Below, in pieces: positions 12,119 through 31,512 of a DNA stretch of 64,000 bases (position 1 is the stretch's first letter; each line of letters starts with the position of its first letter). The notes under the pieces are model-generated. The model was given only the letters and a program-made list of their open reading frames with translations. It did not search any database and had not been told where the DNA came from. This stretch comes from Candidatus Heimdallarchaeota archaeon (GTDB taxonomy: Archaea > Asgardarchaeota > Heimdallarchaeia > Hodarchaeales > Hodarchaeaceae): contig DXJL01000104.1 in NCBI GenBank assembly GCA_019057635.1, forward strand, positions 32,001 through 96,000. Direction: 5' to 3'. The position numbers were made by a program, and so were the translations under genes.

Positions 12119-12868
12119 GTGTCAGTTGTGAACTTAATTAATCTTGAGAATGTATCCAAATATTATACAATGGGAGAAGTCCAAGTTAATGCACTATCGG
12201 ACCTTTCCTTAGAGATTGATAGAGGGAAATTTGTCGTTCTGATAGGTCCCTCTGGTACTGGAAAAAGTACATTATTAAATATAATAAGTGCGATTGATAC
12301 CCCATCTAAAGGAAGAATTCTAATTGAAGGAGTTGATATCTCATTCCTGACCCGAAAACAACGTGCTCAATTTCGAAGACACAAGATTGGGTTTATATTT
12401 CAGTTTTTTAATCTTTTACCAACCTTAACTGCAGTAGAAAATGTTGAATTCGGTCTTGCATTAGTAGGTGTTACCAATTCATCTGGAAACATTTCCTACG
12501 ATACAAGAGACATTCACTCGACAGCTTTGGGATGGCTTGAAAAGGTTGGATTAACTCACAGAGCCAATCACTTTCCCAGCCAAATGAGTGGGGGAGAACA
12601 ACAAAGAGTTGCAATTGCGAGGGCATTAGCTAAAGATCCTCCTATTATAATAGCTGACGAACCAACAGGAAATTTAGATTTTCGTACAGGGATTAAAGTT
12701 CTTAAATTAATGAAAGAATTAAACAAACAAACTCAGAAAACATTCATCATTGCTACTCACAACAGTCAACTTGCAAAAATTGCTGATTATGTAATTTCTC
12801 TTCAAATGGGAGGGGTAGAAACCTATGATCAAATACCCAAGGAAGATCTTGACAATCTCATATGGTAA
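12119..12868 (+). CDS. ABC transporter ATP-binding protein (LolD/MacB type)
   Basis: [28 protein letters not shown]. Confidence 0.95.
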
Positions 12869-12871
12869 GAT

Positions 12872-15559
12872 ATGACAAAAAGGACGAAGAATATGAATTT
12901 TCTTTCTCAATATTGGCGTAAAAAACTGATTGGAGATATCAAACAGCAAAAGTTGTTGTTTTCAGCCTTATTTTTCCTTTGTATCTTTGGAGTAGGTTCC
13001 TATGTAACTCTCACCATGGGATATACGAATTTATATGCTTCTTTGGATAGAATATATGCAACTACTAATTTTGCTGATGTGGAAATAAATACACACTCTG
13101 ATATATGGTTTAATATCTCAGAAGTTGAGTCATTCGTCAAAAATTTTTCTAAACAGAACCCTGAAGTCGGTACAATAAATTTTCGTCTATTAGCCGCATC
13201 AGGATATAATTCGTCAATTGAAACTAAAGACGGTACTCGTTTTCAGCTTACTGCTGGACGAGCTATTGGAATTGACTGGACTTTCTCTCAAACTGAGATG
13301 GTTAATGGATTTATTTTTACAGAAGGGATGGAAAATCCTAATCCAGTGAATAATTCGATCCTTTTAGAAGCTCATTATGCTCGTACTTACGATTTGCATG
13401 TCAATGATTCACTCCAAACTAAGATAAACGGACAGGAATTTAATCTTACTATTCAAGGTATTGTTTATAATCCAGAATCACTAATTGTAATTCCTTCACG
13501 TCATGATTTTTTACCCAATAATCGATTTGGTAATATTTATCTACCTTTAAGAGCTTTACAAGAATATACTAATCTCACTGATCTAGCAAATAATATTATA
13601 ATTAAATTAGCAGATGATTTACACGATGAAGCGCGTTCTTCAATAGTTTCTAACTTCTATAGAGAGCTTAATCTATACACCACCAATTCGTTTGCACCAC
13701 CTATTTTTCAAGAATACCAGGTCTCGAATTGGGCAATTAATATGGATTTAGAGGAAATCAATAAAATTGCTATTGTCCTACCTATTCTAATTCTTGGTGT
13801 AGCAAGCATTGCCATTTTTATTACTTTAAATCGTCTAGTACAAAGTCAACGTCGAATAATCGGAATTGCTTCAAGTCTTGGTTATACACCCAATGACATT
13901 CTTCTCCATTATACCTCTTTTTCCCTAATACTGGGGATTTTAGGGAGTCTCGTAGGAATAATTTTGGGAATTTTATTATCTGGAGGTATAACCTGGGTAT
14001 ATGCCTACTTCATGGGTTTTCCAGCCATTATTTCGGTGGAATTACAACTAGAAGTAATCCTAAGTGCATTTTTCATCGGGGTATCAGTGACATTTATCAG
14101 TGGTCTAATCCCCGCTGTTAAAGCTAATTTAATTTCACCACGAGAGGCACTTCAGGGGAATATCACAGTCGGAAAGGGACGATTTTCATTCATTGAGAAG
14201 TTATTAAGGATTCGATCATTTCGTATCCGCTTTACAATTCCTCTTCGTAATCTTTTTAGGCAAAGATCGCGCACTATTGCAACGATATTCGCGATTTCTG
14301 CCTCTGTGATGATTTTAGTTGTATCAGGTGCATTTAACGATTCAATAAACACTGGAATCTCCAAACAATTTTCTGAAACATCACCGTATCACTTAACGGT
14401 TAGTTATGATGGTTTTAAATTTGCAGACCTTGGATTACTAGATGATATTGCTTTTATTGAACAACTACCAGGTGTTGAGTCAGTAGATCCAGTTTTAGAG
14501 CTTCCCTCTATACTTGAGACAAGTAGTCGAAAGGAAGAAGCTCTAATCATAGCATGGAACTCCTCATCTCCTCGAGCTCACAATTTTCAATGGACTTCGA
14601 AAGGAGATCAATTATTACCCAACAGCAGTCTTATACTCACTTCTGGTCTAGCTAGGACTTTAGGTTCCTCTACAGGCAGTATTTTATCTTATGGATATCC
14701 AAGAATTCCTTATTTGAATTCTGCTTTTGAAATTGCTAATGCAACATGGAATATATGGTTTACATTTGGTGAAGAGCGTGCTAGAAATGAGACTTTAGAT
14801 GAAATATATTCACTCATCACCCGAAACAAAGAACGCTTATCATTCTCCCAGACCTCGGAAGGTGTTAACCTTAGGAATGCAGATATCACGGTAACAGGAG
14901 TATCTGAAGAGATATGGGGCAGTGTAGCTTATACCACTGTACAAACTCTTACAGAATCAATGGGTATTGATATTTTCAAAAATTCTCATCTTGACATTGA
15001 CTTATCTCCTTATTCCAAGTTAATTCTAAAGGTAAAAAATCCAAACAATCTTACTATTTTAGAAAATATAAAAACAGAGATCAGTTCTCTTAGTGAAATA
15101 CGTTCTATTACTTTTGGGTACGATTTCCGAACATCAGTCAACCTCACTATGACTGCTTTCAATGTAATTGTAACCATTTTCATTATTTTTGCCTGTATTT
15201 TAGCAGGAGCTGCAATTTTCACAACTATACACATAAACTTTCAAGAACGAGCACGTGAAAGTGCCACAATGTTAACACTTGGTTTATCGGATCAAGAATT
15301 CCTATTCATCATTACAATTGAAAATGTCTTCCAAACAATAATGGGTATCCTCGGTGGAATTCTTCCTGGTCTTTTACTTGCAGATTGGATTCTTAGTAAT
15401 GCTTTAAGAACTTTTTACTTCAGGATCATAGTTACACCCCAAACCTGGATTATTTTATGGTTTGGTGTATTATTAATTGTCCTTATATCACAGATTCCTG
15501 CGATAATACAAGGAGTCAAGATGGATCTTGCAGAAGTCACAAAGGAATTTTCTCATTAA
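12872..15559 (+). CDS. ABC transporter permease (FtsX/MacB-like, two repeats)
   Basis: Two repeats of TM, large extracellular loop and 3 TM (QRRIIGIASSLG; RARESATMLTLG); adjacent to the ATPase. Confidence 0.9.
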   Translation: MTKRTKNMNFLSQYWRKKLIGDIKQQKLLFSALFFLCIFGVGSYVTLTMGYTNLYASLDRIYATTNFADVEINTHSDIWFNISEVESFVKNFSKQNPEVGTINFRLLAASGYNSSIETKDGTRFQLTAGRAIGIDWTFSQTEMVNGFIFTEGMENPNPVNNSILLEAHYARTYDLHVNDSLQTKINGQEFNLTIQGIVYNPESLIVIPSRHDFLPNNRFGNIYLPLRALQEYTNLTDLANNIIIKLADDLHDEARSSIVSNFYRELNLYTTNSFAPPIFQEYQVSNWAINMDLEEINKIAIVLPILILGVASIAIFITLNRLVQSQRRIIGIASSLGYTPNDILLHYTSFSLILGILGSLVGIILGILLSGGITWVYAYFMGFPAIISVELQLEVILSAFFIGVSVTFISGLIPAVKANLISPREALQGNITVGKGRFSFIEKLLRIRSFRIRFTIPLRNLFRQRSRTIATIFAISASVMILVVSGAFNDSINTGISKQFSETSPYHLTVSYDGFKFADLGLLDDIAFIEQLPGVESVDPVLELPSILETSSRKEEALIIAWNSSSPRAHNFQWTSKGDQLLPNSSLILTSGLARTLGSSTGSILSYGYPRIPYLNSAFEIANATWNIWFTFGEERARNETLDEIYSLITRNKERLSFSQTSEGVNLRNADITVTGVSEEIWGSVAYTTVQTLTESMGIDIFKNSHLDIDLSPYSKLILKVKNPNNLTILENIKTEISSLSEIRSITFGYDFRTSVNLTMTAFNVIVTIFIIFACILAGAAIFTTIHINFQERARESATMLTLGLSDQEFLFIITIENVFQTIMGILGGILPGLLLADWILSNALRTFYFRIIVTPQTWIILWFGVLLIVLISQIPAIIQGVKMDLAEVTKEFSH

Positions 15560-15617
15560 TTTTATCATATACGATTGTCTACAAAATAAGATTTGTGGGT
15601 CATGTGTCTATAGTGGA

Positions 15618-17021
15618 TCAATCAGAGGTGGGTATGTTGGCAACAACTCGTCCATCATGTTTTAAGTCGATTAGATCACGCTGATGTAACGGCTTAAGCT
15701 GGTTTTCTAAAACGATTGGATCCATACCAACACTTTTGGCTAAGGCATCTAAGCTCATTTCCCCATTCATTCTAATAAGGATTGTAATCGGTGCATAGTT
15801 AGAAAGGGATAGAACTTGTTCAATATAATCATTAATATTTCTAACTCTGTTCAAAGTTTGAGTTGTGATCTTTGTTAGCTTTATTTCTGATTCACGATCC
15901 CTAGCTTCTTCTAATTCTGCGTTTACTTTATCTATTTCTATTTTATAATCTGTTAAATTTTTGGATATATTGTCATTTAGCTCTACGAGCTCCGTTATCT
16001 GTACATCCATTTGTGTTGCGTTATTTTCAAGTGAAGCATTTCTTGCAGATAATTCTGTAATTTGAGTATGCAATTCTTTCGAGATATCAGCTTTCTTTGT
16101 TTGAGCTTCTACCAGTTTAGCTTGTAGTTCTTCTATTTCCGCCTGGAATTGTTTGGTGTTATCTCTTAAGCGCGTTTTAGCTGATTCTTCATATTCTTGT
16201 TTAACTTTAGTTAATGAGATCTGGAACTGCTCGTTTTTAAATTTGTATTTTTCTTGTTGCTCTTGTATTAGCTTCTGATATTCTTCCTGTTGTTCAGAAT
16301 ATGCACTGGCCCAAGTTTCCATTGCTTCCGATGCTTGAGAATCCGTAAGAGAGTTTAATCGGGAAATTTCAGCAGTTTTGTCAATTAATTCCATCTGTAA
16401 GGAGGCATTTTTCTCTTCTAGCGTAACGAAATTTTCACCTTTATTATCTAACTTACTTGTTTTTTCACTCAATTCGTTTACAGTTTCTTCCAGTTGAAAT
16501 GATAAATCTTCATTTTTGGTTTTCTCTTCGATTATAAGATTCTGCATTTCTTTTTGATAACTGTCGAATTTTGACTCAATTTCAGCATACTCTTTCTCTT
16601 TCATCTTTAATTGTTCTTGCAAGGATTCATTTATATGATTCAATCGGGACAGATCATTAGTTTGATTTTTTAGCCTTTCTCGGTCGTATTTGGTAAATTT
16701 TTCGTTTGCACCTGTGTCATCGAACGTAACATCTTGGATTAACATATTTTTTATCCAATTAAATGAAGACATTGTAATACGTGTTAATTGGCTCTCGATA
16801 GACCTATTAACATCATCATCAAGTGATTTCAACAATGAATCAACATATACTCGATCTTCATGTCGTGTGATGATATTCGACCGATTCAGTAGGTCATTTT
16901 TGAATCCACTGAATGACACTCCCAATGTTTGAATTGCTATCTTTCTATCCTTCGCTAAATCCTTAATAAATTCTAACCCATATTTTCGTAATTTGGATTC
17001 ATTCGATTCATCCATGGTCAT
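15618..17021 (-). CDS. Long coiled-coil protein with C-terminal winged helix
   Basis: Long E/K/Q heptad-rich region; C-terminus GEMSLDALAKSVGMDPIVLENQLKPLHQRDLID. Confidence 0.8.
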   Translation of the reverse strand: MTMDESNESKLRKYGLEFIKDLAKDRKIAIQTLGVSFSGFKNDLLNRSNIITRHEDRVYVDSLLKSLDDDVNRSIESQLTRITMSSFNWIKNMLIQDVTFDDTGANEKFTKYDRERLKNQTNDLSRLNHINESLQEQLKMKEKEYAEIESKFDSYQKEMQNLIIEEKTKNEDLSFQLEETVNELSEKTSKLDNKGENFVTLEEKNASLQMELIDKTAEISRLNSLTDSQASEAMETWASAYSEQQEEYQKLIQEQQEKYKFKNEQFQISLTKVKQEYEESAKTRLRDNTKQFQAEIEELQAKLVEAQTKKADISKELHTQITELSARNASLENNATQMDVQITELVELNDNISKNLTDYKIEIDKVNAELEEARDRESEIKLTKITTQTLNRVRNINDYIEQVLSLSNYAPITILIRMNGEMSLDALAKSVGMDPIVLENQLKPLHQRDLIDLKHDGRVVANIPTSD

Positions 17022-25904: not shown

Positions 25905-27002
25905 TTACATCCCAAAGCTCAATGCAACATATATCCAATCAACGGCAAACCAGATAATTGCTCCAAGTACTGCAGTTACTGGAACGGTGACTACCCAAGA
26001 AATAACAATTGTATTCACCATTTTTCGTTGAATTGGTAATCTTTCAGCCCAACCAACGGCAATCATTGCGGCTATAAGAACATGGGTTCCACTTAATGGA
26101 AAACCAGCCAATGTTCCTATTGTCATAACTAGCGTCACAGCTACCATGGCCGACAAAGCCGAACCTGCATTCATTGAAACGATTTCCTTCGCAACAACTT
26201 TGATAACTTTCCAACCAACCAAGATTAAACCCAAAGCCATCCCCACCCCCCCAATAATCATTAAATATTCAGTAAAGGTTCCAGGAGAGGTACTATCATT
26301 TAGAATCTGTAATGATAAAACTGGGGCGATAGAGTTCGCGACATCATTCCCAGCTCGAGATGCGGAACTCAGTATTAAAAAAAAACTAAGCAGATATGTA
26401 TAAACGCGATCTAAACGTTCTCGCTCGGTCATTTGAAACCCTACCGCTTGTTCCTCATCTATATCCTTTTCTTCAATGTCTTCCAGTTTTTTGGTAAAAT
26501 AAGTCTCCTCGAATCGCTGTAACCAGAACTGAACCGTTGAAGCAGCAAAAAATCCAATTATTGGACTTAAAATCCAGCCTGCAGCAATTTCTGTAAGTTG
26601 CCAATAATCAACTGAGAAAACACCCCATTCTGGGGATTTCAATCCTGCAACTACACATACACCAATTATCGCACCAATCACCTATTGTGTGGTTGAGATA
26701 GGTAAACCCTCAGCTATACTTGTTGATACAAGAACGATTATCATTGCTATCAATATTGAAATTATCATAGGGTCAGTTAAAACACGATTTCCTATCAAAT
26801 CTTTCCCTATTTTCTAGGCAACAGGTGCACCCATAAGAAACGCACCTAGAACACTAAAGATAGCTCCAAGAATTACAGCCGTACGCAATGTAAATACACC
26901 CGAAGCAATACCAGGTGCCATCATTTCATCATTTGTACCTGCAGCAAAAGCTACAGCGAAAGCCATGGCAAGGGCAAAAAGAAAAATGATAACTTCAATC
27001 AA
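25905..27002 (-). pseudogene. PiT-family inorganic phosphate transporter interrupted by two in-frame TAG codons (pseudogene or amber readthrough)
   Basis: One frame from 27002 to 25905: GTND...GAPVA*KIGKDLI...GLPISTTQ*VIGAIIG...AGNDVANS...GFPLSGTH...SWVVTVP. TAG at 26814-26816 and 26682-26684. Confidence 0.88.
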
Positions 27003-27011
27003 AGAGCGCCC

Positions 27012-27692
27012 TCATTGCCCATATTTTACTGTCATAACTTGAATATAATCAGATGTTTGTTCAGCTGCTTCTGCAACGACAATCAAACTAACGGATATCT
27101 TATAGCAATAATATGCATCTTTGGCATCATAATCAGGTGAATTTATCCTCCCAAAAATATGGAAATCTAAATCTCGCGCTTCTTCACGGGTACTATCTAC
27201 CTTCCCTGCATATTTTCTTGCCTTCTCGTGATCCGCATCAACATATTTTAGTGCATCTTGTAAAAAATCAGTGCACTGATGTACTTTCTCTGCTAAAATC
27301 GGCATCTCATGGGGAATTCTCTGTGGAAAATCCTCCCGAGCGACAAGCCGACGGATTACTACTTCTGTTTTATTGACAATATTATCCATATGTCGGACTA
27401 ACCGATGTCTATCTTCTGTTGCTTGCGGTAGGTATGCTCCCTTAGAGAAAATAGTGTCTATCAACTCTTCTTTAATGTCGTCGCATCGACGTTCGGCTTT
27501 CACAATTTCATCCTTTAAATGCATAATCTTTGATCGAGCTTCTGGATCTTTCTCATGATTTGACCAAATAATAATTGCATCAGCTAGTTTAGCTGAAGCT
27601 ATTTGTAATTCCTTTGCTAATTGCACAAATAGCTCCTCGCCTCGTTTCCACAGTTTTTTATCTCTTCGAAATAACAAAAATTCACCATCCAC
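27012..27692 (-). CDS. DUF47/PhoU-like phosphate transport regulator
   Basis: ERRCDDIKEE...YLP...EDR...D motif; upstream of PiT. The start is probably TTG after a GGTGA site. Confidence 0.85.
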   Translation of the reverse strand: MDGEFLLFRRDKKLWKRGEELFVQLAKELQIASAKLADAIIIWSNHEKDPEARSKIMHLKDEIVKAERRCDDIKEELIDTIFSKGAYLPQATEDRHRLVRHMDNIVNKTEVVIRRLVAREDFPQRIPHEMPILAEKVHQCTDFLQDALKYVDADHEKARKYAGKVDSTREEARDLDFHIFGRINSPDYDAKDAYYCYKISVSLIVVAEAAEQTSDYIQVMTVKYGQ

Positions 27693-27867: not shown

Positions 27868-28836
27868 TTGTCAAAAGAAAAAGAGTTCTTAATTCAAGAT
27901 TTAACAATTGATGATGAGTATGATACAATTTCAGCCAATGCTTCAGTACAAGAAGCGGCATTAAAAATGAAGGAAAAAGGAATTCCGGATTTGGTTGTCC
28001 TTGATGACGATAATATGTATCAGGGCATCATAGCTGATTTTGATATTGTAACTGGCTTGGTTGCAGAAGGGTTATCCGTGGATAAGTCGAAAGTAACCGA
28101 GATTATGTACACAATTGACCCAGTCACAAAAAATACAACAGTATCCGATGCTTTTGCTCGTATGAGAGACTTAGATGTATCAGTCGTTCCTGTTGTAGAA
28201 AATAATGAAGTAATCGGAGTTGCTACGATAACTGATTGCTGGGGATTTTTACCTGAAAAGTATGAAGACCAAAAAGGCCTTATACCTGTTTCTAATCCTC
28301 GATTTGCAAATTATAGTTTTACCATTCTTATGTCGGTGTTATACCTATTTTTCGGGATTTTTGCTCCCCTTATAGGTATTGTTGGTTACCTAAAAGCACC
28401 GATTGCAAGCCAAGGGGGTTTCACAGCCACGTACTATCTTTTTGAGGCTCGAGGAGCTAGTTTTTGGATCCGATATACAGACATCCAAGGTCAATTTAAC
28501 TTTTTATGGCTTTCCCTGTCAATCTTTGGGGTTTTATTTATCGTTCTTGGTCTTGTAAGCATTTATGCAATTTTCCAATGGGCATATGCAGATTATAAGA
28601 TGATTAAAGTCAATCGAAATTGGCATGCTATTGGTACATTATTAGGTCTGTTAGGAATTATAGTAGAATGGCTATTCTTTGTTTCTTTCATTCTGATGGA
28701 TGTCCTACGTGTTTCTAGTACTCAAATTGATTTTGGTGGATTGTTATTCTCAGTTATAGCCATAATTTGTCTACTCGCAGCCGTTTCTCGTGACCTTGTA
28801 TTCCGCGAAACGTCCGCCACACCCGAGGAGGAATAA
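27868..28836 (+). CDS. CBS-pair domain membrane protein
   Basis: Two CBS repeats (ASVQEAALKM...GII...DI; TTVSDAFARM...VPVVENNEVIGV) and ~4 TM helices. Confidence 0.85.
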   Translation: MSKEKEFLIQDLTIDDEYDTISANASVQEAALKMKEKGIPDLVVLDDDNMYQGIIADFDIVTGLVAEGLSVDKSKVTEIMYTIDPVTKNTTVSDAFARMRDLDVSVVPVVENNEVIGVATITDCWGFLPEKYEDQKGLIPVSNPRFANYSFTILMSVLYLFFGIFAPLIGIVGYLKAPIASQGGFTATYYLFEARGASFWIRYTDIQGQFNFLWLSLSIFGVLFIVLGLVSIYAIFQWAYADYKMIKVNRNWHAIGTLLGLLGIIVEWLFFVSFILMDVLRVSSTQIDFGGLLFSVIAIICLLAAVSRDLVFRETSATPEEE

Positions 28837-28840
28837 AAAA

Positions 28841-30523
28841 ATGCCTCGTGGTGGTGGTGGATTTCGAGGCGGCGGAGGGGGCGGTTTTCGCGGTGGTGGT
28901 GGGTTTAGAGGTGGAGGTTTCCGAGGTGGAAGCCGAAGCTTCCGAGTAGGCTCAGTAAGAAGCTCAGGACGTCCATTTGGCCGAACTGGTTCTCGTCGAA
29001 CTGTTTCCCGGGCTCCACGATCTCGTCCAGGAAGAAATTATCATCGCAGACGTCATCGACGTTATTGGGGTGGTTATTATCGGCCATGGTATCGTCGATG
29101 GTGGCATTGGAATTGGTGGTGGGGATATCCATACCGAAGATGGTATTATGCACCTGTTTATTGGGGTGGTGGTGCAGTGTTTGGTATCATTGCCCTACTT
29201 GTAATTTTGCCAATAATTGGTATGGCCTTTATTCCTTATCCATTTGCTAGTAGTAATGCAACTGGAACAGTCACATATCAGGATACACAGACTATTTGGT
29301 ATAATGAGTACTGGTATGAACGAGAACCGATGCAAGAAGATCAAATAATCGATTATAGTGTCGAAGCAACGTCTAAGGTGACGTTTTTAATTTGGGATCA
29401 ACCGTTTGAGAATTTACCGCAAGACCAAGACTTATCTGGGAGCTATTCTGAAAGTATAGTTGTTCAGGCTGATCATGACTATGAATACATTGGGTACTTC
29501 TTAAAGCCTGGTTCTGAATTAACCTACCAATTTAACGTGACCTTAGGCGGTGATATCGAATTCTTTGTTGCTGATGCAAATGCCCTTAATCGTTGGAACA
29601 ATTGGGAGACAATAATACCCGAGGATTCCTACACTGGCTCTGAATCCTATGAGAATAACTTTGTGGTTACCTATGCCCAAGATTGGTACTTAGTATGGTA
29701 CAACCCGACGGCTTCACCAATTCAGATAGATTTTGTAGTAGATTATGTTGCCACGGACAATATTGATATCTCTGCAGCTGAGTATTATATTGAAGATGTC
29801 GAGGATCGACAATCTGATACATTTCCTGTGCCCAGAGATGGCACCTGGTATTTCTTCATATATATGAATCCATTTGTCAACTCTGAAGAATCTGTAGACA
29901 TTACTTTTGAGGTTCGGTATAATACAGAAGTGACTTACGAAGACCATTGGAAGGATGCAAGGCCAGTTTTGTTCATTATAGGCTTTATTGTTGTCCTAGT
30001 TCTCATAGTGGCAGTAGTTCAAAGAAAAAGTTCTAAGAAAAGTGCAATTGCAGCAGCCACGAGTACAGGTACATCATCAACACAGACTGCTACAACTACT
30101 ACGGCCCCGTCACCTCAAAAGACTGAGTGTCATCGATGTAAAGCGGTTTATAGACCAAGTGATGTCTTTTGTACAAATTGTGGGGCTAAACTTCATGGGC
30201 GTGACTATGGTACACCTAAAGCGACAACTCCTGCAAATTCTAAATGGTGTAAAAATTGTGGTGATACTTTGAAGTCAGATAGTCGTTTCTGTAAGAATTG
30301 TGGAACACCAGTCGAGCAGAAGTCCGAATCTCACAAATTTTTCCCTGATGAAAGAAAATCTTTCTTTTGTCAATTAGACAATGAGCAGCATCCCTCAACT
30401 GACTCTGCTTACCAATGTGATCAATGTTCACGAATGGTTTGTGCGAATTGTTATGATGACATCGGAAAAACTGGCATCAGAGTTTGCCCCTATTGTAAAG
30501 GAAATCTAAGTAAAGTTCAATGA
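28841..30523 (+). CDS. Membrane protein: RGG/GAR tail, TM, lumenal beta domain, TM, two zinc ribbons, RING-like Cys cluster
   Basis: ATG at 28841 follows GAGGAGG; repeated FRGGG; CHRC/CTNC and CKNC/CKNC ribbons; C-terminal CQLD..H..CDQC..CANC..CPYC. Confidence 0.88.
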   Translation: MPRGGGGFRGGGGGGFRGGGGFRGGGFRGGSRSFRVGSVRSSGRPFGRTGSRRTVSRAPRSRPGRNYHRRRHRRYWGGYYRPWYRRWWHWNWWWGYPYRRWYYAPVYWGGGAVFGIIALLVILPIIGMAFIPYPFASSNATGTVTYQDTQTIWYNEYWYEREPMQEDQIIDYSVEATSKVTFLIWDQPFENLPQDQDLSGSYSESIVVQADHDYEYIGYFLKPGSELTYQFNVTLGGDIEFFVADANALNRWNNWETIIPEDSYTGSESYENNFVVTYAQDWYLVWYNPTASPIQIDFVVDYVATDNIDISAAEYYIEDVEDRQSDTFPVPRDGTWYFFIYMNPFVNSEESVDITFEVRYNTEVTYEDHWKDARPVLFIIGFIVVLVLIVAVVQRKSSKKSAIAAATSTGTSSTQTATTTTAPSPQKTECHRCKAVYRPSDVFCTNCGAKLHGRDYGTPKATTPANSKWCKNCGDTLKSDSRFCKNCGTPVEQKSESHKFFPDERKSFFCQLDNEQHPSTDSAYQCDQCSRMVCANCYDDIGKTGIRVCPYCKGNLSKVQ

Positions 30524-31512
30524 TTTCCTTTCAAATTCTCTTTTTTCATTTCAGGTATTAAATTGGGGGGTATTAATCCCTTTTCGATTGCAATAATATT
30601 CTCTGCAACCATGATTGCCATTGCTTCACGAGCTTGTTTCGTTGCAGATCCAATATGGGGAGTTAATACTATATTCTTCAATTCGCGCATCTCTTTGGGA
30701 ATTAATGGTTCATTATAGTAGACATCTAGACCCGCACCAGCAATTTTACTTTCACTTAGTGCTTTAATTAGAGCTACTTCATCAATAACCTTCCCGCGCG
30801 ATGTATTAATCAGAAAAGCGTTATTTTTCATCAAATCCAGCTCATTTTCCCCAATAAGGTGATGCGTTTCGTCTGTATATGGTACATGGAGACTTACTAT
30901 ATCACAAGATTCTAATAATTCTTTTAATTTCGGAAGGTATGTCACTTTCATTGATTCGGGTAGATTGTTTGATTTCGAGCGAGAATAATAACAAATTTTC
31001 ATATCAAAACCCGTCCCTCTTTTAGCCACCGCTGAACCAATTCGCCCCATCCCCACGATCCCAAGAGTTTTCCCAGATAATTCATACCCTAGCATGTACT
31101 CAGGTGCCCATCCTGAAAATACAGCTTGTCGACATTCTTGATCCCCTTCAACTATTCTACGTGTAATTGCAAGAATTAAAGCCCAAGTTAGGTCTGCAGT
31201 AGCATTAGTTAAAACATCTGGAGTGTTAGTTACTGGTATACCACATTCAATTGCAACATTGACGTCTATATTATTATAACCGACGGCATAATTCGCAATT
31301 CCCTTCAAATTTGTACAATTTCCTAACAGATTGCTATCTATCCTCACTGATAAAAGAGAGACAAGATAATCAACTGTAGGTAAGATTTTACTCAATTGGA
31401 TATCTGGTGAACTACCAGAATCTAATATAACAACCTCAAAATGGTTCTTTAAAAGTTCTATACCTTTTTTTGGAATTTTATGTGTTAAAAGTACTCGAAT
31501 TTTTCTTTGCAT
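30517..31512 (-). CDS. D-2-hydroxyacid dehydrogenase (glyoxylate reductase-like)
   Basis: AVGYNNID, TNTPDVL, GMGRIG, INTSRG, PHIGSAT. Confidence 0.92.
   Translation of the reverse strand: MQRKIRVLLTHKIPKKGIELLKNHFEVVILDSGSSPDIQLSKILPTVDYLVSLLSVRIDSNLLGNCTNLKGIANYAVGYNNIDVNVAIECGIPVTNTPDVLTNATADLTWALILAITRRIVEGDQECRQAVFSGWAPEYMLGYELSGKTLGIVGMGRIGSAVAKRGTGFDMKICYYSRSKSNNLPESMKVTYLPKLKELLESCDIVSLHVPYTDETHHLIGENELDLMKNNAFLINTSRGKVIDEVALIKALSESKIAGAGLDVYYNEPLIPKEMRELKNIVLTPHIGSATKQAREAMAIMVAENIIAIEKGLIPPNLIPEMKKENLKGNH

Follow-up and report, generated by a model that had tools for sequence, protein, structure and literature searches.

We analysed a 64,000-nucleotide (nt) window of a genome contig from Candidatus Heimdallarchaeota archaeon (DXJL01000104.1), numbering all positions within that window, and examined one gene in it whose product is a predicted two-pass membrane protein combining an arginine- and glycine-rich N-terminal tail, an outer beta domain and C-terminal zinc-binding modules. 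The underlying open reading frame (ORF) is entered at 28790..30523 (+) in the ORF list of the window; read from the ATG at 28841, it yields a protein of 560 amino acids (aa) that begins MPRGGGGFRGGGGGGFRGGGGFRGGGFRGG, a start that fits the N-termini of homologues in the alignment (MPRGG or MARGG). The original prediction, made from the DNA letters and their translations, had described this product as a chain of an RGG tail, an aromatic tract, a transmembrane helix, an APD1-4-like domain, a second helix, a linker, two zinc ribbons and a RING-like cluster. The ORF and every one of these parts are present in that order, as seen in the translation, the residue composition, the Pfam matches and the homologue alignment, and with 77 database homologues and 95 genomic relatives this arrangement is far beyond chance. 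The protein, its parts and the gene directly upstream are as follows.

27868..28836, forward strand: partner gene, 322 aa, a cytoplasmic CBS pair followed by four predicted transmembrane helices (Pfam, hydropathy)
28841..30523, forward strand: main ORF, two-pass membrane protein, 560 aa plus stop (ORF list, translation, homologues)
28841..29038, forward strand: aa 1-66, RGG/FRGG tail, predicted to be cytoplasmic, with an invariant RPFGRTG (composition, alignment)
29039..29170, forward strand: aa 67-110, Arg/Trp/Tyr-rich juxtamembrane tract (composition, conserved in the alignment)
29171..29245, forward strand: aa ~111-135, transmembrane helix 1 (hydropathy; the helix corresponds to model residues 2-26)
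29246..29956, forward strand: aa 136-372, predicted extracellular acidic all-beta domain of two sandwiches (AlphaFold2 model, composition)
29435..29752, forward strand: aa ~199-304, GOLD-like core of the ectodomain (fold matches; contains the APD1-4_N match at aa 204-234)
29957..30022, forward strand: aa ~373-394, transmembrane helix 2 (AlphaFold2 model, hydropathy)
30023..30124, forward strand: aa 395-428, predicted cytoplasmic linker, basic and then Thr/Ser-rich (composition)
30125..30316, forward strand: aa 429-492, double zinc ribbon (Pfam DZR)
30356..30520, forward strand: aa 506-560, RING-like finger of C4C4 type (C-x2-D-x3-H-x8-CxxC-x4-CxxC-x11-CxxC)

The distribution of charge along the chain is markedly uneven. 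Residues 1-110 carry a net charge of +26 and not a single acidic residue, the 237 residues between the two helices (aa 136-372) carry a net charge of -37 with 0 cysteines and 2 N-x-S/T sequons, and the linker at aa 395-428, in which 17 of 34 residues are Ser or Thr, has a net charge of +5. Under the positive-inside rule, these values of +26, -37 and +5 predict that both ends of the protein are cytoplasmic and that the middle domain faces outward. The proposed layout of helix, ectodomain and helix is borne out by the AlphaFold2 model, where two helices flank the beta domain, in agreement with hydropathy and charges. The linker is the least conserved region of the protein, with 18.5% identity between the two main clades, Hodarchaeales-type and Loki-type.

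Searching with aa 120-560 in a word-indexed database returned 77 proteins, and all the named ones come from Asgard archaea. They comprise 68 members of the family, 3 WD40 fusions that share the ectodomain, and 6 Cache-HAMP sensors that share only the C-terminal fifth. A scan of genomes found 95 relatives, from which 79 loci were kept, all in Asgard metagenome-assembled genomes (MAGs) or isolates; the nearest relative, at 92% identity, belongs to a Heimdallarchaeota/Hodarchaeales-type MAG, and the carriers include Lokiarchaeum ossiferum and Promethearchaeum sp. (loci L092, L086 and L087, from cultured Loki-type species). A profile of the ectodomain matched 130 of 400 Asgard genomes at E<=1e-10, falling in five of 33 families: it was found in 18 of the 21 other genomes of the window's genus, in 10 of 14, 95 of 135 and 1 of 1 genomes in three Loki-type families, and in 1 of 31 genomes of another family. 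The remaining Asgard families among the 400 genomes gave no ectodomain match beyond four weak partial ones. The family is not phylum-wide, and it is mostly single-copy.

The gene directly upstream is an almost invariant companion. With tblastn it was located immediately upstream, in the same orientation, at 77 of the 79 loci, or 78 of 79 when L084 is included, where the C-terminal part of the partner was recognised by eye in ~600 nt of upstream sequence; L070 has no upstream sequence. The partner ends 4 nt before the ATG at 28841 in the window; across the 51 loci (of 77) in which the start pattern recognised an ATG of the MPRG type, the intergenic gap ranges from 0 to 9 nt and is most often 2 nt. 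The start pattern found no ATG in the other 26 loci, among which examples read VPRGG or LPRGG, suggesting GTG or TTG starts. A profile of the partner (E<=1e-30) matched 127 of the 400 Asgard genomes, all of them in the five families that have the main gene, and comparison by hand placed both genes in 124 genomes, the partner alone in 3 and the main gene alone in 2, several of these five single-gene cases being partial matches or lying near contig ends. The evidence thus supports well a conserved two-gene unit, probably translationally coupled, and the tight coupling to a CBS-domain membrane protein that had been noted at this one locus has proved far stronger than a single locus could show.

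The partner itself scores 57 bits on the Pfam CBS model (cut-off 24) in two stretches, and its hydropathy segments lie at aa 146-180, 208-241, 252-283 and 284-314. Matches to known families or structures are confined to the CBS part, CBS proteins of the PDB aligning to partner profile positions 16-131; for the four-helix part, scans of Pfam, the PDB and NCBIfam returned no known family, and in the ESM Atlas the partner found its own Asgard cluster only. Like MgtE, CNNM/CorC and ClC, the partner joins a cytoplasmic CBS pair to a membrane domain, and the MgtE CBS region is among its weak matches (E 0.0014), but unlike in those proteins, the membrane part has no known family and gives no indication of a transport function. 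The two proteins may well be in physical contact; a complex prediction for the partner with aa 105-400 of the main protein returned a score of 0.00 and a mark of 0.32, a result that speaks neither for binding nor against it.

Between the two transmembrane helices lies the most informative part of the protein. AlphaFold2, run on aa 105-400 with 67 sequences, returned a model with a mean predicted local distance difference test score (pLDDT) of 89.5, in which two long helices surround 17 strands. We searched the model against a database of 48,161 representative chains, and the best match, lying at model residues ~95-200 (aa ~199-304), was the GOLD domain of p24beta1 (5azw_B; Z 13.3, root-mean-square deviation (rmsd) 1.5 A, 89 aligned of 93 residues, 18% identity), with further GOLD domains following: p24gamma2 (5gu5_A, Z 12.7), TMED1 (7rrm_C, Z 12.3) and supernatant protein factor (SPF; 1o6u_A, Z 11.9). 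Foldseek on the ectodomain agrees, placing p24beta1 at a template modelling score (TM-score) of 0.78 on the target. By these fold matches, the core of the ectodomain has the GOLD beta-sandwich fold. The four strands that precede the core and the four that follow it appear, in the model, to form a second sandwich. In the ESM Atlas, the best named cluster for the ectodomain (0.83) holds archaeal proteins, 19% of them with EMP24/GOLD, which we treat as a lead only.

Two other candidates for the ectodomain were discarded. Birnavirus VP2 occupied the top Foldseek rows, with TM-scores of 0.12-0.24 and rmsd values of 15-22 A that mark spurious long alignments, and the Pfam family GLEYA (E 0.0077, 17 bits) matched 1 of 79 members only. 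We also observed that the ectodomain is embedded in WD40-propeller surface proteins (P0070-P0072), and that one relative of 875 aa (P0080) carries a zinc ribbon and a TPR domain in place of the RGG tail while keeping the Arg/Trp/Tyr tract.

The proposed likeness of this domain to the APD1-4 proteins of eukaryotes gains support from both directions of search. APD1-4_N was matched at E<=0.01 by 44 of the 79 orthologous ectodomains, no other family being consistent, and it exceeded its cut-off in 2 of 8 homologues scanned (29.1 and 28.4 bits). For the reverse search, a hidden Markov model of the 79 ectodomains was run over 1.84 billion representative proteins, which gave 184 proteins at E<=1e-3; the Pfam scan covered 64 of the best 150 of these 184. 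The hits outside the family align to profile positions ~60-175, which is the GOLD-like core. Among the 64 scanned hits, 22, at E-values from 3.6e-9 to 1e-4, lie above the Pfam cut-offs for APD1-4_N or APD1-4_M, including P0133 (E 3.6e-9), which comes from the EukProt collection of eukaryotic transcriptomes. P0185 (profile E 2.6e-5) reaches 163 bits on one APD model and 137 bits on the other, scores that mark it as a bona fide plant-type APD. We conclude from these profile matches that the core of the Asgard ectodomain is homologous to the APD lumenal domain, both having a GOLD-like fold.

The resemblance extends to the overall architecture. Eukaryotic APD proteins (Arabidopsis APD1-4; PF16040, PF16041) have the same order of transmembrane helix, extracytoplasmic beta domain, transmembrane helix and cytoplasmic zinc finger, and Gly-rich basic N-terminal tails like that of the Asgard protein occur in APD-Pfam-positive relatives, P0133 among them. 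The Asgard protein differs in its extra outer sandwich, whose four N-terminal strands lie outside the APD-aligned region, and in having a double zinc ribbon, a finger of C4C4 type rather than the plant RING, and an obligate partner gene of the CBS and four-helix type. The window protein falls outside the APD family as Pfam defines it.

Since the closest structural matches are the p24/TMED GOLD domains (Z 13.3, 12.7 and 12.3), we weighed the reading that the protein is a p24-like cargo receptor, in which the GOLD-like domain would bind surface or secreted cargo and the tails would bind coat-like, ESCRT or other membrane-remodelling machinery, making it an archaeal forerunner of GOLD-domain cargo sorting. 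The reverse profile search did reach two proteins with EMP24_GP25L/GOLD above the cut-off (2 of the 64 scanned: P0129 at E 4.5e-10, and P0189), and PMC10936438 describes a GOLD domain linked to adaptin-like parts in Methanosarcinales-type ESCRT-related loci, a precedent that favours such a role. However, the protein has no signal peptide, coiled coil or single-transmembrane layout as in p24, and the window protein gives no match to Pfam EMP24_GP25L (PF01105) at E<=1. Its core shares the fold of p24/TMED cargo receptors and of the SEC14L/SPF GOLD domains, yet it has the strands of another sandwich on either side, sits between two transmembrane helices and is joined to different cytoplasmic parts. 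Moreover, no ESCRT or coat gene is conserved alongside, the CBS-domain gene being the only conserved neighbour, and a common fold says nothing on function. On balance, we consider a cargo receptor improbable.

The N-terminal tail (aa 1-66) contains 16 Arg, 24 Gly and 0 acidic residues, with five RGG in aa 1-30, four of them FRGG, and the adjoining tract (aa 67-110) contains 10 Arg, 10 Trp and 10 Tyr, again with no acidic residue. The tail is the best conserved region between the Hodarchaeales-type and Loki-type clades, with a mean pairwise identity of 72.8% (a value inflated by low complexity) as against 36-48% for the folded parts and the transmembrane helices; RPFGRTG and many single columns are invariant in 27 aligned sequences. 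RGG/GAR regions bind RNA, and the clustered RGG of the tail recalls those of fibrillarin, Gar1 and nucleolin in eukaryotes. A conceivable main function would be to tether RNA at the membrane or to seed condensates: the RGG tail and the Arg/Trp/Tyr tract would bind RNA or self-associate through cation-pi contacts and so keep nucleic acid or a protein-rich phase at the membrane, the outer domain only positioning the protein. Besides the conservation of the tail, this idea can draw on the fact that three or more RGG occur in only two ORFs of the genome, the main ORF and an OB-fold protein of a nucleic-acid-binding kind. That second protein (C66:5268-5861) is 198 aa long and OB-fold-like, with a C-terminal Gly/Arg/Tyr tail holding 7 RGG.

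The wider family tells against such a role. About 11 of the 22 distant relatives whose N-termini were examined begin with a Gly-rich basic tail, M-[PGR]-[RK]-[HG]-GGG or similar, as in the EukProt protein P0133 (MPRHGGGSRSGG), and it therefore seems that a Gly-rich cationic tail before the first helix belongs to a wider superfamily; in several of these relatives, however, the tail is rich in Gly/His or Gly/Tyr instead of RGG, and the Gly/His-rich replacements argue for a more general role of the tail. In P0080, a TPR domain takes the place of the tail while the aromatic tract stays. Unlike the RGG/GAR regions of eukaryotes, the Asgard region forms the N-terminus of a membrane protein, is fixed in sequence, precedes an aromatic tract and is attached to no RNA-binding fold, and an RNA tether would leave the conserved ectodomain, the ribbons and the partner unexplained. 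We judge it to be quite unlikely.

Three of the distant relatives, P0133, P0186 and P0194, match both APD models and have Gly/Arg/His N-terminal tails together with Pro/Tyr-rich C-terminal tails that resemble PPxY motifs. PPxY motifs recruit HECT ligases, and these tails suggest a second possible link to ligases, so that the APD-type family may be connected to ubiquitin ligases in more than one way.

Two zinc-binding modules follow the linker at the C-terminus. The double ribbon consists of two CxxC-x10-CxxC motifs, scores 37.8 bits on Pfam DZR (PF12773; cut-off 27.3) and has all eight cysteines invariant in 27 sequences. After it comes the finger, a cluster ending CANC-x11-CPYC, in which a Cys, a His and six further Cys occupy the same columns throughout 37 aligned sequences. 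We collected 22 copies of the finger, including five paralogous ones from the same genome; seven Cys are invariant among them, and their consensus is C-x2-[CDH]-x12-13-CxxC-x4-CxxC-x8-11-CxxC, a spacing which we take to be shared with NOT4 and other C4C4 RINGs. At the second ligand position, two paralogous copies have Cys, giving a canonical CxxC, one has His, and the orthologues and two further copies have Asp. Judged by this pattern, the finger offers eight ligands at cross-brace spacing, with CxxC-x4-CxxC-x11-CxxC in common with the CNOT4/NOT4 zf-RING_4, the cellulose-synthase zf-UDP and the Prok-RING_2 and Prok-RING_4 families.

Comparisons with known domains lean the same way. The zf-UDP and zf-RING_4 models each matched 17 of the 22 finger copies at E<=0.01; a profile search of PDB sequences placed the RINGs of TRIM32, p44, MAT1 and NOT4 on top (E 0.008-0.017), with the CesA RING among the best; and the top Foldseek rows for the finger are RING domains, at E>=0.098. 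An unbiased VIA fold search brought only 119 of 48,161 chains to Z 2, and about 30 of the best 50 of these 119 are RING or U-box entries (Z 2.5-3.5). The finger is plausibly RING-like by its pattern and the kind of matches it draws, and a zinc cross-brace would be the expected arrangement of its ligands. As to the RING-like C-terminus first proposed, the spacing of the ligands, the Pfam and PDB hits below threshold and the many RING and U-box entries among the fold hits all favour it; every score is weak, however, and 61 of 79 loci lack the finger. A RING is compatible with these data and plausible. The original prediction as a whole is partly supported, and neither of the two outcomes it had named as refuting (no structural likeness to APD domains, and a C-terminal cluster other than a cross-brace RING) was obtained.

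The same finger occurs elsewhere in the genome and beyond it. Six Hodarchaeales-type Cache-HAMP sensors (P0073-P0078) end in a zinc ribbon and a nearly identical finger (FFCQLDNEKHP...CPYCKG), which suggests that the finger is a movable output module. Within the same genome, this type of finger was found in an LRR protein (C60), a TPR protein (C111) and a 368-aa protein with two copies (C203). Another protein there (C58:7958-10318) carries WD40 and Asp-rich calcium-binding-like repeats, a transmembrane helix, and then the finger and a zinc ribbon in its predicted cytoplasmic tail. Two distant members from a JGI metagenome, P0174 and P0187, combine an RG-rich tail, a transmembrane helix, a single GOLD-like domain, a second helix, a linker, a zinc ribbon and a RING-H2-like finger, the last scoring 24-25 bits on zf-RING_2, below the cut-off of 27.3 (2 of the 64 scanned hits); a homologue search with P0174 returned only P0174 itself.

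The genome (3.19 Mb, 91.6% complete) contains the ubiquitin, E1 and E2 genes whose presence had been put forward as a check on the prediction: 2 ubiquitin, 4 E2 and 5 ThiF/E1-like matches, in three clusters. Cluster C20 holds ubiquitin, E1, two E2s and a 71-aa zf-RING_2 ORF, cluster C150 holds ubiquitin, E1 and E2, and cluster C82 (10636-16154) holds an E2 gene (-), followed by an E1-like ORF at 12622-13911 (+) and then by a 586-aa protein at 14394-16154 (+) with two fingers of the same type as that of the main protein. This two-finger protein also has weak winged-helix matches to E3_UFM1_ligase, DDRGK and PCI, and the C82 cluster may represent a UFM1-like or other ubiquitin-like system. A weak finger-like match in the C20 cluster (E 0.087) proved to be a zinc ribbon on a multi-transmembrane protein and was rejected as a copy of the finger. 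The occurrence of the finger at the cytoplasmic end of sensor-like proteins and beside E1 and E2 genes is an association, of the kind that would be expected of an output module feeding into conjugation.

The main gene itself lies outside all three E1/E2 clusters. Archaeal cascades of E1, E2 and small RING proteins have been described in Caldiarchaeum subterraneum (PMC5654768), and a ubiquitin-ESCRT connection in Asgard archaea (PMC9192718), and the window genome likewise clusters ubiquitin, E1-like, E2 and small RING genes that could supply an E2 to the finger; the RINGs of those systems are reportedly small, soluble and encoded inside the operon, whereas the Asgard gene stands apart from the clusters and its product is membrane-bound.

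Taken together, these findings lead us to favour, tentatively and with confidence falling a little short of an even call, a receptor-like membrane protein that, in the Hodarchaeales-type clade and jointly with a CBS and four-helix subunit, would function as a ligase or adaptor of RING type for ubiquitin or a ubiquitin-like protein. It would be a two-pass, receptor-like protein of the plasma membrane with both ends in the cytoplasm and a GOLD/APD-type domain outside, made together with the CBS-domain membrane protein and most likely working with it. The ectodomain would bind a ligand on the cell surface or beyond it, and the cytoplasmic finger would recruit one of the E2~ubiquitin(-like) conjugates of the genome, so that targets in or near the membrane would be modified. 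The protein would thus be an E3, or an adaptor for one, anchored in the membrane, and its CBS subunit could tune the modification to an adenosine-nucleotide ligand.

A considerable number of observations weigh against this reading. The finger, which makes up the last ~70 residues, is present in 18 of the 79 loci (19 of 80 with the window) and missing from 61 of 79, and is confined to the Hodarchaeales-type clade. In a quick maximum-likelihood tree of the ectodomain, the 19 finger-bearing rows all lie on one side of a branch with a Shimodaira-Hasegawa-like approximate likelihood ratio test (SH-aLRT) support of 100, which points to a single gain or loss. The first ligand pair of the orthologues is not CxxC but C-x2-D (or C-x6-H), a departure from C4C4 RINGs that is read from the sequence pattern, and the finger of the window protein falls below every RING cut-off (zf-UDP 23.5 against 27.1, zf-RING_4 18.9 against 27, Prok-RING_4 17.9 against 27). 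The AlphaFold2 model of aa 424-560 is moderately confident, with a pLDDT of 72; Foldseek gave no match to the finger at E<=1e-3; and the fold matches are weak, the best reaching Z 3.8-3.9, with TFIIE zinc ribbons and a ribosomal zinc protein (Z 3.7-3.8 for both), as well as sirtuin zinc modules, tying with the RINGs. Canonical zf-RING_2 proteins are also present in the genome, one of them within a ubiquitin cluster, and could be the E3s.

The ectodomain contributes its own reservations. Pfam APD1-4_N scores 16.8 bits on the whole window protein and 18.7 bits on the ectodomain alone against a cut-off of 27, while APD1-4_M (cut-off 25 bits) gave no match to the window protein at E<=1 and rose above its cut-off in 0 of the 400 Asgard genomes. 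An hhalign comparison of the Asgard profile with 18 APD-positive proteins reached a probability of 99.2% over 145 columns, with an E-value that is inflated, the 18 proteins having been picked from the hits of that same profile; against P0185 alone, it gave an E-value of 2.5e-4 and a probability of 43%. Other jelly rolls match the core at Z 9-12 (Ena pilins, PirA, PliG, PPC, collagen-binding domains and the SID1 ectodomain, the first four at Z 10-12), and GOLD-like jelly rolls are common, GOLD proteins occurring in other archaea too.

The 61 loci without the finger argue that the conserved core function of the family is independent of it, and they open the way to a different explanation: a receptor or scaffold with no ligase activity, in which the GOLD-like ectodomain, the RGG/aromatic tail, the ribbons and the CBS-domain partner do the core job and the finger is an interaction module. 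Such a protein might, for example, sense or anchor something at the cell surface and relay this state inwards, either to partners in the cytoplasm or to a small unit for transport or regulation. Tail, ectodomain, ribbons and partner are retained in these finger-less loci, the Loki-type ones included; the ectodomain is also fused to WD40 propellers or TPR domains where no finger is present; all RING scores lie below the curated cut-offs, with fold Z values of at most 3.9 shared with non-RING zinc modules; and the membrane part of the partner is without known relatives. On the other side, the proteins of eukaryotes to which the ectodomain is related are RING ligases (APD1-4; PMC13210498), a RING-H2-like finger stands at the C-terminus of the distant members P0174 and P0187, and the two-finger protein adjoins E1 and E2 genes; the receptor or scaffold explanation also proposes no mechanism of its own. 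We regard it as the main rival and a serious possibility, though a doubtful one.

The ligase reading bears on a broader question: little is known of the prokaryotic origins of membrane-anchored RING ligases and GOLD receptors, which belong to the endomembrane and ubiquitin systems of eukaryotes. The protein described here combines, in an Asgard genome with ubiquitin, E1 and E2 genes, an outer domain of APD/GOLD type with candidate RING-type zinc fingers. The layout of Gly/Arg tail, transmembrane helix, GOLD/APD domain, transmembrane helix, and zinc finger or ligase-recruiting tail might even predate eukaryotes, with the Asgard family as a prokaryotic sister group, or as the ancestor, of the APD ligases of eukaryotes, a proposal we think rather unlikely as it stands. 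If it were true, the Asgard family would be a new eukaryotic signature protein and, with its CBS nucleotide-sensing subunit, would link what its GOLD domain recognises on the cell surface with modification of the ubiquitin type at the membrane. A literature search for work linking APD domains to Asgard archaea found nothing, most subscription journals lying outside that search; the papers listed under APD terms dealt with plants or unrelated topics. Plant APDs are described in PMC13210498 as 'orphan' E3s, their substrates unknown. A simple relative in archaea, with its fixed partner gene, offers a second system in which to ask what the APD domain recognises, and the relatives in the cultured Lokiarchaeum ossiferum and Promethearchaeum sp. 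make the question of the ligand practical.

Four short contigs from RNA libraries (151-188 nt, from two metatranscriptome studies) map to the gene, two of them identical to it at 30306-30489 and 30404-30523, in runs that hold 5-6% of the sampled words; DNA carry-over is possible, and we do not count these contigs as proof of expression. Rfam and tRNA scans of the window gave no matches, nor did an NCBIfam scan of the main protein. The other neighbours of the gene pair (2-hydroxyacid dehydrogenase, amidohydrolase and HypE) are conserved only in the Hodarchaeales-type clade. The D-2-hydroxyacid dehydrogenase gene at 30517-31512 (-) converges on the main ORF and overlaps its last 7 nt, and on the other side of the pair lies a PhoU_div (DUF47) gene at 27012-27692 (-), beside a Pit-like transporter, so labelled by tblastn, that shows up as two ORFs at 25905-26681 and 26814-27002 (-).

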